The notes under the pieces are model-generated. The model was not told the origin of the DNA, searched no databases, and was given only the letters and a program-made list of their open reading frames with translations. This document shows positions 11,211 to 62,995 of a stretch of DNA of 64,000 nucleotides, in pieces; the first letter of the stretch is position 1, and each line of letters begins with the position of its first letter. A program made the translations under genes and the position numbers. The stretch comes from Prochloron sp. (GTDB lineage Bacteria > Cyanobacteriota > Cyanobacteriia > Cyanobacteriales > Prochloraceae), in NCBI GenBank assembly GCA_965198675.1, contig OZ240666.1, forward strand, positions 4,644,776 to 4,708,775, in the 5' to 3' direction.

Positions 11211-11564
11211 ATGCGACAAGTCAATTTTACCATTATCTTTGCTTTTTGTTTGGCTCTGGCCTTATTCAGCATCGAAAATACTCAGTCTGCTCCCATTAAA
11301 ATCATTCCCGGAGTCCAAGTTCAAGCCCCCCTCTCCATTGAACTAATTGTCACCATGGGTGTTGGAGCAATTCTCGCATGGCTGTTTAGCGTCTGGACTG
11401 GACTACAGCTACAGGTAGGAGCTTTCCGGAGCAAACGGGAAATGCGCTCGAAAGAAGAACAAATTGAAGTTTTAGAGCAAGAGGTGGAACAATGGAAAGC
11501 AGAGGTAGAGAAGCAAAAACAATTACTTCCCGGATCGAACGCCGAAGTAGAAGTAATTAGCTAG
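11211..11564 (+). CDS. small membrane protein with C-terminal coiled coil (LapA/DUF1049-like)
   Basis: 117 aa with two predicted TM helices followed by a charged helical tail. Confidence 0.45.
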   Translation: MRQVNFTIIFAFCLALALFSIENTQSAPIKIIPGVQVQAPLSIELIVTMGVGAILAWLFSVWTGLQLQVGAFRSKREMRSKEEQIEVLEQEVEQWKAEVEKQKQLLPGSNAEVEVIS

Positions 11565-11819
11565 TAACCGATCCCCCCTCTAAAGAAGGTTGCTCCTCCT
11601 AGACTGTCCGCCCTTCGGGCGGACTGGGAGGCCGATAGGTTACCAGCCCACGAATCTAGTATTCGTAGCCGTTATTTGAGTCATCTCACCCTAGGGTGCT
11701 TTCCAGCTCTAGGCTCTGAGGTCAAAGGTTAAACAGTTTTAGCGGGATTAAGACAGTGCTTTTGGCGCGACAAGCTCAGATAACCGGGAGAGGAAAACAT
11801 TACCCGTTTTGGAGGACGA
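11564..11819 (+). ncRNA. putative omega-RNA of the decayed IscB element
   Basis: Lies immediately upstream of the iscB remnant. It shares sequence islands with the omega-RNA-like region upstream of the intact iscB: CCCC(C/G)CTCT(A/G)AAGA, CCCACGAAT and GTTAAACAG(C/T)TTTA. Confidence 0.45.
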
Positions 11820-12475
11820 ATGTCTAACTCTGTTTTAGTAATCGACACCAACAAACAGCCATGCAACCCGGTTAATCCGGGGATGGCCAGACGTTTGTTG
11901 AAGGAAGGGAAAGTTGCCGTATTTAGGCGCTATCCCTTCACCATTATTTTGAAAGAAGAGCGCAACAAAGAGCCCACCCCTTGCCAAGTCAAGATTGACC
12001 CCGGCTCCAAAACAACCGGTATCGTGCCCCTCGGTTTCTCAACCGGACTCGGCCCAAGGGGTGGTTGCCGCCCAGCCTTGTGCGCGAGTATCTGCTTGAA
12101 AAGTGGCATCGCACCTGTGCCTACTGTGGTGCTCAAAACACCCCGTTGGAAGTGGAGCACATTGTGCCGAAATCTACGGGGGGCAGCAATCGGGTGAGCA
12201 ACCTTGCCATAGCCTGTGTGCCGTGTAATCAGGCCAAGGGCAATCAAGCCATTGAAGACTTTCTCTCGGGCAAGCCGGATCTGCTCAAGCGGATTAAGGC
12301 CCAGACCAAGGCTCCCCTGAAGGATGCGGCGGCGGTCAACTCGACCCGGTGGGCATTGTTTGAGCAGTTGAAGGCAACGGGGTTGCCGGTGACGGTGGGC
12401 ACCATCCAGGGCATCAGCCACAAATATTGTTCTTTCGTTCATAAAAAGGATGGATATTCCTATGCATTCAGTTAG
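11820..12475 (+). pseudogene. iscB: internally deleted, frameshifted IscB
   Basis: It retains the PLMP-like N-terminus (VLVIDTNKQPCNPVNPGMARRLLKEGKVAVFRRYPFTI), RuvC-I (KIDPGSKTTG), FLNRTRPKGWLPPSL in a second frame, the HNH domain (CAYCG...EVEHIVPKS...NLAIACVPCNQAKG) and the DGYSY tail. It lacks RuvC-II/III. Confidence 0.8.
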
Positions 12476-12553
12476 ACGGCAAATAAATTTGCCCTCCTCG
12501 CGTTTCCTCCCCGCTCTAAAGAGACGGGGTTTCGACGCTACCGGATGCTCATC

Positions 12554-13714
12554 ATGAAAGCCATGATTCTGGCGGCAGGGAAGGGGACTCGCGTGCGTCC
12601 TATTACTCATACAATACCTAAACCCCTAATTCCTATCCTGGAAAAGCCAGTGATGGAGTTTTTATTAGAACTGTTACGAGAACATGGATTCAATCAGATT
12701 ATGGTGAATGTTAGTCACCTAGCAGAGGAGATCGAAAGCTATTTCCGCGACGGTCAACGCTTTGGGGTTCAAATCGGCTATTCTTTTGAAGGCAGAATTG
12801 AAGAAGGGAAGCTCATAGGAGAAGCGTTAGGTTCTGCTGGTGGACTTAAACTTATTCAGGATTTTAATCCTTTCTTTGATGATACCTTTGTGGTCCTCTG
12901 CGGCGATGCTCTCATTGACCTAAATTTGACGGAAGTGGTGAAATGGCATAAGGAAAAAGGAGCGATCGCTACGGTGGTGACCAAGTCAGTACCTCGGGAA
13001 ACTGTTTCCAGTTACGGGGTTGTGGTCGCTGACCATGACCAGAAAATTAAAAGCTTCCAGGAAAAGCCCTCTGTAGAGAGAGCGCTCAGTACCAATATAA
13101 ATACTGGCATTTACATTTTTGAACCGGAAGTAATTGACTTCATTCCTCCTGGTGTTAAATACGATATTGGCAGCGATCTATTTCCTAAGTTAGTAGAAAA
13201 GGGTGCTCCTTTCTACGCTACCTGTATGGACTTTGAATGGGTAGATATCGGCAAAGTACCGGACTACTGGCACGCAATTAGAAGCGTTTTATTGGGAGAA
13301 ATAAAAAATGTGAAAATTCCTGGCAGAGAAGTAGCACCTGGTATCTATACTGGGCTGAATGTAGCTGTAAATTGGGATAAGGTGGATATAACAGGCCCAG
13401 TTTATATCGGCAGCATGACCAAAATTGAGGATGGGGCGAAGATTATCGGTCCAGCGGCTATCGGTCCCAATTGTTGCCTTTGTAGGGACACCACGGTAGA
13501 TAATAGTGTCATATTTGAATACTCTCGCTTGGCACCTAGAATCCAATTAGTGGATAAGTTGGTCTTTGGACCCTATTGCGTTGATAAAACAGGGACGGCC
13601 ATCGACGTTAGGGACGCAGAACTGGATTGGCTGATTACCGATACTCGACAAAGTCCTCCTTCCTTAGAACCCAGGGAAAAGCAGGCTATAGATGAATTGC
13701 TCAATGGATATTGA
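12554..13714 (+). CDS. sugar-phosphate nucleotidyltransferase
   Basis: MKAMILAAGKGTRVRPITHTIPKPLIPI is a nucleotidyltransferase signature, and a hexapeptide-repeat-like C-terminal half follows. Confidence 0.8.
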   Translation: MKAMILAAGKGTRVRPITHTIPKPLIPILEKPVMEFLLELLREHGFNQIMVNVSHLAEEIESYFRDGQRFGVQIGYSFEGRIEEGKLIGEALGSAGGLKLIQDFNPFFDDTFVVLCGDALIDLNLTEVVKWHKEKGAIATVVTKSVPRETVSSYGVVVADHDQKIKSFQEKPSVERALSTNINTGIYIFEPEVIDFIPPGVKYDIGSDLFPKLVEKGAPFYATCMDFEWVDIGKVPDYWHAIRSVLLGEIKNVKIPGREVAPGIYTGLNVAVNWDKVDITGPVYIGSMTKIEDGAKIIGPAAIGPNCCLCRDTTVDNSVIFEYSRLAPRIQLVDKLVFGPYCVDKTGTAIDVRDAELDWLITDTRQSPPSLEPREKQAIDELLNGY

Positions 13715-43396: not shown

Positions 43397-43513
43397 AACA
43401 ACTTACTCACCTTTCAGTTACCAGTGACCAGTAATCACGTACCATGGTAGCAGCTCAACCTTGGGTTTGAGGCCCCCACCACTTATTTGGTGGCAAGCCA
43501 CTTATTGGTGGAA

Positions 43514-43670
43514 GGTAACTGGTAACTGCCTGACTGCCCCGGTTGGCATGAGCAGGACTGGTAACTGGTAACTGGTAACTGCCTGACTGCCCCGGTTGGC
43601 ATGAGCAGGACTGGTAACTGGTAACTGGTAACTGGTAACTGGTAACTGGTAACTGGTAACTGGTAACTGT
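43514..43670. repeat. heptamer (GGTAACT/CAGTTAC) tandem arrays interleaved with a 33-bp module
   Basis: Runs of GGTAACT (up to about 8 units) alternate with two copies of GCCTGACTGCCCCGGTTGGCATGAGCAGGACTG. The same modules occur at 9480-9520, 18700-18800 and 22540-22640. Confidence 0.9.
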
Positions 43671-59628: not shown

Positions 59629-59888
59629 GAGGGAGGATAGGGGAATTTTTCACGATACTTCTCGGGAGAGCGGAGGAAGCTCGGCTCGGCGGATAAATCC
59701 GCCGTAAAACAGTGACCAGGACGCCAAAGGCGGTTGCTTCGCAAAGCTTCGCAATACCAGTGACCAGTTACCAGGCGTATGGTGCGGGCTTTGGTCCCGC
59801 ACCAACGCCTTCCACCAATAAGTGGTTTGCCACCACTTATTTGGTGGGGGCCTCAAACCCAAGGTTGAGCTGCTACCATGGTACGTGA

Positions 59889-61187
59889 TTACTGGTCACT
59901 GGTAACTGAAAGGTGAAATTGGTAGGAGTAGCCATCTTTTCTGTGGATGGTTTCGCAATATTTATAGCTAATTCCTGAAACCCTCCCTTTCGCAGTAGTA
60001 ATATCAAAAGAACCAGTTTTTCGAGTTGCCACTCTGCCTGTATAAGTACCGATTTTTTTACCTTTAGTTACAACAGCTCTTACAATGTCTCCTGTCTGAA
60101 AACCTTTGTGAATTTTCTTTCTGGAGTTATGGCGAATCGGAAACCCATATTTATTTGTCCCGCATATCTGACGCTTCCCATGGCCTTTAGCTGCAATTAA
60201 CAAAGGTTGATAATCTTCAATGTGCAACACATCAACCTTGCCAACATTTGCAGCATCCAGCCAATGAGTTTTTGGTATGTTTTGACGGCAACGGTTATAT
60301 TTAGTTAAACCGCCTGAACCCACTTCAACCGGGAGTCCAATTAATTTCAGTTCGTCGTGCAACTTCCACCGAGTTGCATTGACTGCCGCCGCATCTGCCA
60401 ATGGTTTTTTAGCTTGAGACCAAATACGCTTGATAATATTGGATTTACTTGACAGAAACTCTTCTATTTCTTGATTACCTTTAGCTTGATTGCAATTATG
60501 GCAAGCAATCGCTAGATTCGAGACTCTATCGGAACCTCCTTTTGATTTAGGCTTAATATGCTCAACCTCTAGTCTAGTATTTTTTACTCCGCAATAGGCA
60601 CAAGTCCTGTCCCATTTTTCTAGAAGATATTCCCGCAGTTCATAACCATATAAAGTCCCCTGTTGGTATTCAATACCAGAGACTTCAGGGTTTAGCATTT
60701 TTTGAGTATCAAACCTAACTAGCTCTTGAGAAATACCAGTTACTGGGCAAAATTTAATTAGTTTGTTGACCCAAGTTAAAATATTATGAACCCGCGACAT
60801 TAGACTAGGTGGCAACCAACCTTTGGGTCTCCTCCTATTAAGAAATCTGGGCTGACGATACCGAGTTTTACGATTACGACGAGAGCGTCTAAGCTGTCTC
60901 CTAGAGGTTAAAGCTTCTCGGATTTGAAAACCTCTATGGGTTAGTTCAGCCCCCCAAATAACCCTATCGCTTTGGACAATCGCAAATCCTGTTGTCTTAG
61001 CACCTGGGTCTATTTTTAGTTGATGGTCATGAGTTACGCAATTTTCCACCTCTAAATCTTCCATTACAATGGTGAATGGATACCGTCTTAGAACTTTTGC
61101 CCTTCCTGACTTCAGCAATTTTCTTGCTTTAGCAGGATGACATGGGTCTAGTGGTTTTCGGTTTTTATCCAAGACAAATACACGCAT
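59889..61187 (-). CDS. iscB: IscB RNA-guided nuclease (apparently intact)
   Basis: 432 aa: PLMP-type N-terminus (MRVFVLDKNRKPLDPCHPAKARKLLKSGRAKVLRRYPFTI), RuvC-I KIDPGAKTTG, Arg-rich bridge RRQLRRSRRNRKTRYRQPRF, RuvC-II SQELVRFD, HNH CAYCG...EVEHIKPKSKGGSDRVSNLAIACHNCNQAKG, RuvC-III HWLDAANVG, and a DGYSY tail. Confidence 0.85.
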   Translation of the reverse strand: MRVFVLDKNRKPLDPCHPAKARKLLKSGRAKVLRRYPFTIVMEDLEVENCVTHDHQLKIDPGAKTTGFAIVQSDRVIWGAELTHRGFQIREALTSRRQLRRSRRNRKTRYRQPRFLNRRRPKGWLPPSLMSRVHNILTWVNKLIKFCPVTGISQELVRFDTQKMLNPEVSGIEYQQGTLYGYELREYLLEKWDRTCAYCGVKNTRLEVEHIKPKSKGGSDRVSNLAIACHNCNQAKGNQEIEEFLSSKSNIIKRIWSQAKKPLADAAAVNATRWKLHDELKLIGLPVEVGSGGLTKYNRCRQNIPKTHWLDAANVGKVDVLHIEDYQPLLIAAKGHGKRQICGTNKYGFPIRHNSRKKIHKGFQTGDIVRAVVTKGKKIGTYTGRVATRKTGSFDITTAKGRVSGISYKYCETIHRKDGYSYQFHLSVTSDQ

Positions 61188-61209
61188 AATGTGAATACTC
61201 CTATTTCTA

Positions 61210-61429
61210 GGGTTAAGTTCGCTTCGTCAATGTTTTTCAAGCTTGTTGGGCTTGCTGCACTGCCTTGCCCCTCGTAAAGCTGTTTAACAACAAGCGACAG
61301 GGCCATAAACTAGCGACGCATTCGTGGGTGTCATAACTTGAAAAACGTAGCCCACTAATGGGCTTAGACTGGTCAGCTATCCTATGAGAGAGGCACGAGA
61401 GCAACGCCTCTTCAGAGCGGGGTGCTGAC
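61210..61429 (-). ncRNA. putative IscB omega-RNA scaffold
   Basis: A 220-nt non-coding segment directly 5' of iscB on the same strand. It is duplicated at 61678..61895, with substitutions concentrated in a few patches. Confidence 0.6.
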
Positions 61430-61553
61430 ATCCGGGACAATTTCTGGTTCGCTTCAATCGTGCCACATGGTCGGGGTTTTCAGCATGAGTTGGAAAGGTC
61501 AAACCAACAACAGCTAAGAGGGCGAAGGTAGTAGTCAAAGCCTGGAATTTCAT
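61430..61553 (-). pseudogene. 5' fragment of a secreted pentapeptide-repeat protein gene, cut by the IscB element
   Basis: MKFQALTTTFALLAVVGLTFPTHAENPDHVARLKRTRNCPGC is a signal peptide plus the usual CPGC lead-in to pentapeptide repeats. It ends exactly at the element boundary. Confidence 0.6.
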
Positions 61554-61559
61554 GAAAAA

Positions 61560-61895
61560 TTCTCGGGAGTTTGGAAACCACCATTTTCAAATGGTGGAGT
61601 AAAAACGACGCGGCAAATTTATTTGCCGTCCCCCACCAGGGGGGGTGGAGTATAAATTCCACAAACTCCTCTTACGAGGGTAAAGTTCGCCTCGTCAATG
61701 TTTTCCAAGCTTGTTGGGCTTGCTACACTGCCTTACCCCTCGTAAAGCTGTTTAACAACAAGCAACAGAGCCACAAACTGGCGACGCATTCGTGGGTGTT
61801 ATGACTTGAAAAACGGAGACCTCAAAGGGCTTAGACTGGTCAGCTATCTAAAGGAGAGGCACGAAGCCCCGTCACAAAGCGAGCGGGGTGCTGAC
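61560..61895 (-). mobile_element. ORF-less IscB-element derivative (omega-RNA plus RBS plus right-end hairpin)
   Basis: It contains the second omega-RNA-like copy, the AGGAGT ribosome-binding site, then directly the GGCAAATAAATTTGCC hairpin and CTCCCGAGAA. The iscB ORF is completely absent. Confidence 0.6.
61678..61895 (-). ncRNA. orphan omega-RNA-like copy
   Basis: 218 nt, collinear with 61210..61429. Confidence 0.55.
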
Positions 61896-61901
61896 CTGGC
61901 A

Positions 61902-61956
61902 GGGTAAGATTCAACGCCTGGTTAGACAAAGTTAACATTGGTTGATATAGTCAAGG
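61902..61956. repeat. 55-bp direct repeat, copy a (abuts the orphan element)
   Basis: GGGTAAGATTCAACGCCTGGTTAGACAAAGTTAACATTGGTTGATATA..GTCAAGG recurs at 62650..62707. Confidence 0.85.
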
Positions 61957-62034: not shown

Positions 62035-62271
62035 ATGGCTAAAGTAGCGAAAGAAATTATCTTTTACTCAGATATTGCAGGAAACGAGCCATTTAATAAC
62101 TGGCTAAATGGTTTGCGAAATTCTCTTATAAGACGACGTATTTTCAAGGGCTTGTTTCGGATCGAGAGCGGCAATTATGGAGACAAAAGCACCCAAACCC
62201 AAGACATTAAAATTGCAAAAGCCTATTGGAAGGACTACTTAACTAATGAGAAAATACAAAACTTTACATGA
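62035..62271 (+). pseudogene. RelE/ParE-superfamily addiction-module killer with an internal deletion
   Basis: ...RRRIFKGLFRIESGNYGD joins directly to KSTQTQDIKIAKAYW. The central beta-strands expected in this family are missing. Confidence 0.5.
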
Positions 62272-62557
62272 AGCAGCCAAAGAATATTTCATGAAAAATC
62301 CTGAAGAAATTGACAATTTTATTCTCGAAATTTTTGAGGACTATGCTAAAGACGGGGATTCGGCTGCACTACTTTCTGAACTACGAGTCATTGCTAGTGT
62401 CAAAGGTATTTCTTATCTGGAAGAAGATTCCGAGATGACCCCGCAGGAATTGGAAAAAGACCTTTCTTGCCAAGAAAACCCACCCCTTGATAGTGTGAAC
62501 TCCATTATGCAGGCCATAGGTTATCAGCTTATGCCAAAACCGCTCCTAAAAACGTAA
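62246..62557 (+). CDS. HigA-like addiction-module antidote protein
   Basis: 103 aa; ...NPEEIDNFILEIFEDYAKDGDSAALLSELRVIASVKG...NPPLDSVNSIMQAIGYQL. It overlaps the killer remnant. Confidence 0.5.
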   Translation: MRKYKTLHEAAKEYFMKNPEEIDNFILEIFEDYAKDGDSAALLSELRVIASVKGISYLEEDSEMTPQELEKDLSCQENPPLDSVNSIMQAIGYQLMPKPLLKT

Positions 62558-62649
62558 TTACTACTGCTGCATGGTGAGCGATGCCCACCCTACAAACTAC
62601 TGCTGCATGGTGGGCGATGCCCACTACAAACTGAATATTTTATTGGGTC

Positions 62650-62707
62650 GGGTAAGATTCAACGCCTGGTTAGACAAAGTTAACATTGGTTGATATAATT
62701 GTCAAGG
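62650..62707. repeat. 55-bp direct repeat, copy b (unoccupied site)
   Basis: Same sequence as 61902..61956 with a 2-3-bp indel. It is not adjacent to an IscB-type end. Confidence 0.85.
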
Positions 62708-62995
62708 GATATTAGGGGGATCGCCCAAAAATACATCAAGCGTAGGGTGGGCATCGCCCACCATGCAGCCCACCGTGCAGTTGTTATATCTTACTATCCT
62801 ATGAAACAAATTGACTCTCAAGTCTAGGTGGGCAATGCTCATATTATACTATCTAGAATAGCAGTTCAGCTTTCTGCACGCATTTCCCACCCTACGAACT
62901 CAAATTGAAACCAAACCAGGGGTTTGATAAGGTAGCCCGCAATTCATTCCCGGGCGGGTCGGTGGGCAATGCCCACCCTACGAACTGGTCACTGG

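Follow-up and report, generated by a model that had tools for sequence, protein, structure and literature searches.

Can a guide-RNA gene persist as a transposable element once the nuclease gene that it accompanied is gone? The question is raised by a 64,000-nt stretch of the Prochloron sp. genome (assembly GCA_965198675.1, contig OZ240666.1, positions 4,644,776-4,708,775 of the forward strand), hereafter called the window, in which two omega-RNA genes lie in tandem on the minus strand. One is followed by a gene for the nuclease IscB; the other, at 61554-61895, is not, and is referred to here as the orphan. On the evidence of its sequence, the orphan is a 342-bp IscB element (ISC branch of the IS200/IS605 family) without an open reading frame (ORF), which apparently keeps a sound guide-RNA gene and both transposon ends and has lost the IscB gene. 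An earlier note, made from the letters of the window, had proposed such a derivative in tandem with an iscB-bearing copy, and this core reading is supported by the Rfam score, the exact boundaries, the end hairpins, and the recurrence of the same layout in other genomes.

In characterized systems, IscB uses an omega-RNA that is encoded upstream of its gene at the right end of the transposon and takes its guide from the flank. In IS200/IS605 elements, TnpA is the enzyme that cuts the element out as single-stranded DNA and closes the donor again. The complex of nuclease and RNA then cuts the resealed joint beside the target-adjacent motif (TAM), and the element is brought back by recombination (Meers et al.). 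Relatives of the orphan were collected with a 23-base pattern from the omega-RNA core, using one genome per species, which returned at least 107 loci, nearly all cyanobacterial. Labels such as L004, L015, and L050 denote loci among the matches listed, which were taken as 8-kb chunks, a format that biases edge cases. The sampled loci are restricted by the choice of core pattern, and all counts of relatives given below are counts among the matches listed.

The gene-less element and its family

The Rfam model of the IscB omega-RNA (HEARO, RF02033; gathering score 83) matches the orphan over its full length, model positions 1-211, at 61680-61895 with 151.4 bits, and matches the copy upstream of iscB at 61212-61429 with 152.7 bits. 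The two copies are collinear in pairwise alignment, as the earlier note had stated, and are 85.9% identical over 234 nt (BLASTN), with indels. No iscB follows the orphan scaffold between 61554 and 61680, either in a tblastn search with IscB or in the ORF list, in agreement with the earlier note; the nearest iscB belongs to a separate, downstream element. The ORFs that overlap the orphan are mechanical ones only, and there is no coding capacity for a transposase or a nuclease between its ends.

The orphan begins 5'-GTCA (GTCAGC, read from 61895) and finishes with TTTTTC immediately before ATGA, at 61554/61553. Similarity to gene-less relatives in other genomes sets in exactly at the G of GTCAGC and stops just before ATGA. 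Eight aligned ORF-less copies and 52 scored element ends likewise diverge in their flanks exactly at GTCAGC and at the ATGA junction, and the boundary is fixed at 61895 because the family flanks upstream of GTCAGC are unrelated. The element ends (GTCAGCACC... and ...GAGAATTTTTC) carry no inverted repeats, and the flanks (CCAG on one side, ATGA on the other) show no duplication; subterminal imperfect palindromes are present at both ends on the same strand, at 61867-61888 and 61578-61597. A description as "roughly 340-bp MITE-like" is therefore right in its size and wrong in its class, since miniature inverted-repeat transposable elements (MITEs) have the terminal inverted repeats and target-site duplication that are absent here.

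Parts of the orphan's tail recur within the window. Plus-strand positions 12476-12493, which follow the decayed iscB of a third element, repeat the hairpin ACGGCAAATAAATTTGCC of 61612-61629 without a difference, and the sequence CTCCCGAGAA occurs exactly twice, both times on the minus strand, at 61560-61569 and, after the iscB-bearing copy, at 59659-59668 (chance expectation 0.14). Both features had been placed after the decayed iscB, at 12483-12530; the hairpin is indeed there in identical form, and CTCCCGAGAA is represented by a diverged equivalent only. The hairpin and T-run at 61601-61629 score as an intrinsic terminator and could set the 3' end of the RNA.

The family consensus of the first omega-RNA hairpin, the 21-mer CCCCGCTCTAAAGAGACGGGG, is identical to the left-end (LE) hairpin of the decayed copy (12509-12529) and is found in 13 loci, occupying omega-RNA nt 8-28 where its position was checked (L015 3352-3372). 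Because the same 21-mer serves as LE hairpin and as omega-RNA 5' hairpin, the LE and right-end (RE) hairpins are interchangeable in this family. TnpA probably also recognises the first omega-RNA hairpin as its RE site, a role predicted from the sequence and position of this hairpin. One motif is apparently the TnpA site at both ends and an RNA helix as well. Table 1 lists the parts of the orphan and the features around it.

Table 1. Coordinates of the orphan element and of neighbouring features in the window (LE, left end; HMM, hidden Markov model)
Feature	Position	Strand	Basis or remark
Guide-equivalent flank, 16 nt directly 5' of scaffold, AATCTTACCCTGCCAG	61896-61911	-	Putative guide; would need an upstream transcription start
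Orphan omega-RNA scaffold (HEARO)	61680-61895	-	RF02033, 151.4 bits; 60/67 model pairs
First omega-RNA hairpin, CCCCGCTCGCTTTGTGACGGGG, holding the patch named in the earlier note	61867-61888	-	Family consensus CCCCGCTCTAAAGAGACGGGG
3' GNRA-tetraloop hairpin CCUC-GUAA-GAGG, then AGU	61665-61679	-	Family stems covary; minimum-free-energy folds of both copies
35-nt linker with small hairpins (e.g., CCACCCCCCCTGGTGGGGG), in the position otherwise held by iscB	61630-61664	-	Equivalent paired hairpins in ORF-less copies of other genera
Terminator-like hairpin ACGGCAAATAAATTTGCCG and T-run	61601-61629	-	Terminator-like score; family-conserved position; recurs in L050, L073
LE subterminal hairpin CCACCATTTGAAAATGGTGG	61578-61597	-	Covarying-stem hairpin at equal end distance in relatives
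Terminal 24 nt, TTTCCAAACTCCCGAGAATTTTTC; last element base 61554	61554-61577	-	Tail HMM: conserved TTTCCA.ACTCCCG.GAG.TTTT just before (A/G)TGA
Target/TAM ATGA, outside the element; start codon of flanking ORF	61550-61553	-	Published target, N followed by ATGA (PMC4810608)
IscB-bearing element: omega-RNA 61212-61429, iscB 59889-61187, target GTGA 59650-59653	59654-61429	-	Rfam; Pfam
Variant hairpin in IscB-bearing element	59689-59704	-	
Host small-ORF fragment with signal-peptide-like N-terminus, between the two elements	61430-61553	-	ORF list
Third IscB element of the window, decayed, with ends built alike; target ATGA 12553	11564-12552	+	Rfam; iscB fragments; tail HMM
48-nt exact direct repeat, outside the element; second copy 62650-62697	61902-61949	+	Promoter-like site

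The two omega-RNA copies differ in patches, which the earlier note had singled out as suited to a search for compensatory changes. The patch that it named is part of the first hairpin, whose folding is retained (CCCCG...CGGGG around an inner UCGC/GUGA stem), and the helices are kept: the orphan forms 60 of the 67 consensus pairs of the Rfam model and the iscB-linked copy forms 61. Between the copies, pairing is preserved by two double-sided and two single-sided changes, three pairs are gained in the orphan, one is lost, and five involve gaps. Unpaired positions carry substitutions twice as often (20/77) as paired ones (16/134). The scaffold continues directly after the Rfam model into a hairpin with a GNRA tetraloop, CCUC-GUAA-GAGG in the orphan and CCUA-GAAA-UAGG in the iscB-linked copy, a compensatory difference. 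Across the family the stem of this hairpin varies as CCUA/UAGG, CCCA/UGGG, UCCC/GGGA, CUGA/UCAG, and CGGA/UCCG, with GAAA, GCAA, or GUAA loops. The AGGAGT that had been taken for a ribosome-binding site turns out to be the 3' arm of this covarying hairpin, which is present also in gene-less copies without any AGGAG.

Because a comparison of two sequences is underpowered as a test of compensatory change, covariation across the family was used instead, with the Rfam structure mapped onto 32 gene-less homologues and compared with slid controls and 500 shuffles. In these homologues paired cells make up 82.3% (33-42% in slid controls), changes on both sides occur in 29 pairs (7-13 in slid controls), and the covariation score is 0.215 (at most 0.082 in slid controls). 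None of the 500 shuffles reaches the observed value in any of five whole-structure measures. The aligned homologues demonstrate that the gene-less layout evolves with compensatory changes.

The same gene-less arrangement of omega-RNA and tail is found in Paraprochloron, Prochloron, Lyngbya, Microseira, and Calothrix. It consists of the scaffold, the GNRA hairpin, two small hairpins, an ACGGC..GCC hairpin with T-run, a subterminal hairpin, and TTTCCA.ACTCCCG.GAG.TTTT immediately before ATGA. The orphan is not a one-off deletion, because the same omega-RNA-plus-tail architecture recurs across genera. Among the matches listed, the closest omega-RNA to that of the orphan belongs to a gene-less copy (L015, 88.6%) in Ca. 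Paraprochloron terpiosi, and between the orphan's tail and those of the gene-less L004 and L048, from the same organism, identity is 84% over 139 nt. The different flanks across genomes point to mobility of the family only.

A census of omega-RNA-only copies against iscB copies, proposed in the earlier note for the whole genome, was carried out on the sampled loci; the source genome is represented in it by the window. A copy was called iscB-linked if at least 350 aa of iscB followed the omega-RNA, and gene-less if a recognisable end lay 340-540 bp from the element start with no iscB. The 115 omega-RNA matches comprise 49 gene-less copies plus the window orphan (approximately 50 in all), 23 iscB-linked copies by this definition, and 12 with neither iscB nor a recognisable end; the remainder lie too near a locus edge to be classified or have a partial iscB only. 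ORF-less copies are 340-540 bp long, as compared with about 1.6-1.8 kb for iscB-bearing copies. Microseira wollei has ORF-less and iscB-linked copies at 11:1, Microseira sp. BLCC-F43 at 7:2, Calothrix MO_167.B12 at 7:0, and Prochloron at about 2:4; the window itself holds one gene-less copy. These ratios suggest that in several cyanobacteria most omega-RNA genes of the orphan's subfamily, among the matches listed, are without an adjacent nuclease gene.

In a distance tree, large clades consist of gene-less copies only. One gene-less element occupies the same site in Microseira sp. BLCC-F43 (L054 1-1586) and M. wollei NIES-4236 (L090, minus strand), where a single 1586-nt BLAST alignment at 95.3% identity takes in the element together with its upstream flank and the gene that follows it. 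This shared site indicates long-term vertical persistence, as far as can be judged from the two loci.

Two further loci are of a different kind. In Calothrix MO_167.B12 (L010 4-1112), a gene-less element is followed, after about 320 bp, by a gene for a Y1 TnpA that is 67% identical to an IS608-like probe, and the two may form one composite element. L026 (Microcoleus sp. AT8-B5) was considered as a second tandem of orphan and intact copies and was rejected as such: it contains an internal tandem duplication of 395 bp that includes the 5' end of iscB. The duplication (L026 6320-7115) is perfect, covers the 3' part of the omega-RNA and the first ~45 iscB codons, and is either real or an assembly artefact.

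Mobilisation, start codons, and alternative explanations

The explanation that we consider likely as a whole is that the orphan is a non-autonomous, protein-less member of the ISC branch of IS200/IS605, resembling the palindrome-associated transposable elements (PATEs), with a complete omega-RNA gene that is mobilised in trans and used by IscB in trans, and that the tandem arose by independent insertions. A Y1 TnpA encoded elsewhere in the genome would mobilise the orphan as single-stranded DNA. Transcription entering from the upstream flank would give an omega-RNA with the 16-nt guide AATCTTACCCTGCCAG, and this guide would match the orphan's own vacated site, followed by the ATGA TAM. IscB acting in trans, for example from the neighbouring copy with its ~86% identical scaffold, would cut the empty joint at which AATCTTACCCTGCCAG abuts ATGA, and recombination after the cut would restore the orphan. 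Expression of the orphan and its use by IscB in trans would follow the known systems by analogy.

Several observations weigh against this explanation. A simple sigma-70 scan found no minus-strand promoter just upstream of 61895, and a rough tblastn search found no TnpA gene in the 64-kb window with probes that do detect TnpA in L010 and L035. No empty or syntenic site for the orphan was found in two metagenome scans, one with the GUN4-protease protein and one with 23 nt from the beginning of the host ORF. Relative to the family consensus, the orphan's first (RE) hairpin has an atypical apex, which might impair recognition by TnpA. In the neighbouring IscB, the last ~9 codons are replaced by a MITE, so that the activity of this protein is putative. 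The minimum free energy is about -71.5 kcal/mol for both copies, with unremarkable z-scores (-0.9 for the orphan, -1.8 for the iscB-linked copy); predicted thermodynamic folding alone does not discriminate between the copies and is uninformative here. The covariation seen in ORF-less copies could also have accumulated partly in iscB-linked ancestors.

Some of these points are shared by the alternative that the orphan is a dead relic, the decayed leftover of a complete IscB element that is no longer transcribed, mobile, or used, with a structure that reflects recent origin or inheritance. The missing upstream promoter prediction, the lack of a TnpA gene in the window, and the aberrant RE hairpin apex all fit a relic, and decay is active in the source genome, because the window also contains a decaying copy (11564-12552) and an iscB-bearing copy with a defective LE. 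The orphan, however, keeps both end hairpins and a full scaffold whose Rfam score equals that of the iscB-linked copy, and the gene-less architecture, including the linker hairpins, is common to several genera and covaries, which random internal deletion would not yield. A relic is unlikely on balance.

The position of the gene-less elements relative to host genes introduces a second alternative. An (A/G)TGA follows 52 of the 52 scored element ends (45 ATGA and 7 GTGA), a universality that is partly by construction because the script sought the motif 22-33 nt past its anchor. From the ATG or GTG of this target, an ORF of at least 100 codons opens at 28 of 49 scorable ends (57%), as compared with a null of 13.6% at (A/G)TGA sites taken at random from these loci (binomial p ~1e-12). 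NCBIfam alignments place the native N-termini of PsaL, PetH (ferredoxin-NADP reductase), LepA, and a sugar-phosphate nucleotidyltransferase of the window at such starts; for SufD the NCBIfam model matches from residue 172 only, and the N-terminus is unconfirmed. Sites of this kind include 61550-61553 and 12553-12556 in the window and those in L086, L050, L073, L045, and others. The last 12 nt of the elements resemble a Shine-Dalgarno (SD) sequence (CCCGGAGATTTTTAG directly before ATG), with GGAG 8-9 nt before the ATG. A terminator-like hairpin with a T-run lies ~50-75 nt upstream of the petH and lepA starts (L050 4001-4027 and L073 721-750). A consensus scan found no outward promoter inside the three elements upstream of petH, psaL, and lepA.

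The host could, on this evidence, have domesticated the gene-less copies as leader or translation-initiation modules in the 5' untranslated region (UTR) of the gene at whose start codon each copy ends, and not as guide-RNA genes. The excess of ORFs of at least 100 codons at element ends, the psaL, petH, lepA, and sufD cases, the SD-like last 12 nt, and the one insertion that is orthologous in two Microseira species are in keeping with such a use. Targeting of ATGA combined with purifying selection against intragenic insertions nevertheless predicts the same pattern with no host function, and this combination may explain the start-codon pattern as a whole. Conservation spans the entire IscB-binding scaffold, beyond the 3' end, and the window copy precedes only a truncated ORF of 54/58 codons. 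We regard domestication in the 5' UTR as very improbable.

A broader proposal, which we advance tentatively and hold to be considerably less secure than the trans-mobilised guide-RNA element itself, is that gene-less IscB omega-RNA mini-elements form a lineage that sustains itself, is more numerous in filamentous cyanobacteria than its relatives with a nuclease gene, and docks, via ATGA, on native start codons (psaL, petH, lepA, and sufD). Host promoters would make the omega-RNA as the leader of essential mRNAs, the SD-like 3' end would re-supply translation initiation, and IscB would be a scarce trans factor shared among the elements. If this is true, the guide made from a host promoter would be taken from the 5' UTR of the downstream gene.

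The chance that the tandem is an artefact, by misassembly or by tandem duplication of the omega-RNA region, is negligible: the two similar same-strand segments lie 468 bp apart, but they are only ~86% identical with indels, differ in 5' flanks and 3' continuations, have their own target sites, and the orphan's closest relative among the matches listed is in another genus (L015). The earlier note had named assembly duplication among the findings that would overturn its reading, and 14% divergence, indels, and different flanks exclude it.

The tandem partner, the decayed copy, and the repeat at 62650

The element downstream of the orphan encodes a 432-aa IscB (59889-61187) with Pfam RRXRR and HNH domains and 86-91% amino-acid identity to Prochloron didemni IscB proteins. 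It had been called intact, a description that does not fully hold. In the region 59654-59730 it lacks ~30 nt, including the LE subterminal hairpin, that the orphan, the decayed copy, and elements of Prochloron possess, and the 3' end of its iscB harbours a MITE. The element is probably immobile, to judge from its left end, although its nuclease gene is open. The nested repeat is 109 bp long (59808-59916), is MITE-like, and provides the last ~9 codons and the stop of iscB; a second copy, 95% identical, lies at 43407-43515, and the flanks carry CAGTGACCAG-type motifs.

The earlier note had placed the orphan just upstream of the ATG of the host gene that the iscB element interrupts, and this is so to the base: the orphan ends 0 nt from the ATG at 61553, and the same ORF is interrupted by the iscB element at 61429/61430. 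Removal of the iscB element in silico restores an ORF of 54 codons. The orphan touches the start codon because the target of these elements is ATGA, and the tandem is no more than the product of two insertions, independent of each other, into (A/G)TGA sites separated by 124 bp.

The third IscB element of the window is decayed. Its omega-RNA matches the HEARO model at 11564-11803 on the plus strand with 117.3 bits, and its iscB fragments cover 230 aa. The ORF downstream of it encodes the sugar-phosphate nucleotidyltransferase mentioned above, aligned from residue 1. The element was apparently inserted in a TAATGA stop/start overlap between two co-oriented genes (11545-11566 and 12545-12560), and the upstream ORF now stops at a TAG composed of TA from the flank and the first G of the element.

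On the other side of the orphan, the sequence abutting its guide end had been said to recur unoccupied at 62650 and to provide an empty site for comparison. The repeat itself is real, 48 nt being identical between 61902-61949 and 62650-62697. As an empty site it was rejected, since 6 nt separate its onset from the boundary at 61895 and there is no relation between its other flank and the ATGA side. Each copy carries a strong plus-strand extended -10 promoter-like site (TAGACA-17-TATAGT/TATAAT, with an upstream TG). The promoter-like site faces a HigB/HigA-like pair, and by this reading the repeat at 62650 is a duplicated promoter-like segment.

The two 48-nt copies bracket the small HigB/HigA-like pair (62035-62557), whose toxin-like ORF is short and whose antitoxin alone has a Pfam match. 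A 46-nt inverted repeat (62602-62647 / 62724-62769) encloses the second 48-nt copy in its loop. The region 62560-62990 holds a cluster of GGTGGGCGATGCCCAC-type palindromic repeats, with five direct copies and several inverted pairs. Repeats of the GGTGGGCGATGCCCAC type are typical of cyanobacterial short dispersed repeats.

Comparison with known systems

The HEARO RNA and the IscB omega-RNA are reportedly treated in work by Weinberg and colleagues from 2009 and by Altae-Tran and colleagues from 2021. The orphan resembles this RNA in its full-length model match above the gathering score, in having the same helices, and in the position of the guide 5' of the scaffold at the right end. It differs in that no HNH/IscB ORF follows and in that the scaffold runs into a GNRA hairpin outside the Rfam model. 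The Rfam HEARO model is known to lack downstream elements (Meers et al.).

Among described transposons, ISC1-1_MA of Microcystis aeruginosa has a 5'-GTCA terminus and inserts between N and ATGA without target duplication, as established from real empty sites (Kapitonov et al. 2016, PMC4810608). The orphan shares with it the 5'-GTCA end, the duplication-free N-ATGA junction, the subterminal hairpins, the lack of its own tnpA, and a cyanobacterial host, but encodes no IscB and is 342 bp long. MITEs, in turn, are small and non-autonomous like the orphan and reach many copies in some genomes, as do the ORF-less elements (at least 11 in Microseira wollei); they are set apart by the orphan's lack of terminal inverted repeats and target-site duplication, and by its expected HUH/Y1 single-strand chemistry, as opposed to DDE.

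PATEs are protein-less IS200/IS605 derivatives that Dyall-Smith and colleagues are said to have described in 2011. The orphan is like a PATE in being short and gene-less, in its IS200/IS605-type end hairpins, in its presumed mobilisation in trans, and in its guide-RNA gene. The described cases are mainly of the TnpB type with the omega-RNA at the 3' end, whereas the orphan is of the IscB type with a 5' guide. PATEs [quoted passage not shown] (Meers et al. 2023). PATE-like is the accurate term for the orphan, a member of a multi-copy gene-less family, and the annotation of this part of the window should become "non-autonomous ISC/IscB element carrying an omega-RNA".

In the literature searched, which did not cover Weinberg 2009 or Altae-Tran 2021, no description was found of an IscB-type gene-less class, of its abundance in cyanobacteria, or of docking on start codons. 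Gene-less guide-RNA elements occur commonly in cyanobacteria, and their class has been recognised in outline before; the find is therefore real but ordinary. It bears on RNA-guided transposon retention where guide and nuclease are unlinked, on the number of guides per IscB, and on the tolerance of elements before essential genes. The ideas put forward here extend the published concepts of ISC transposons and of PATEs with omega-RNAs, and overturn none of them.

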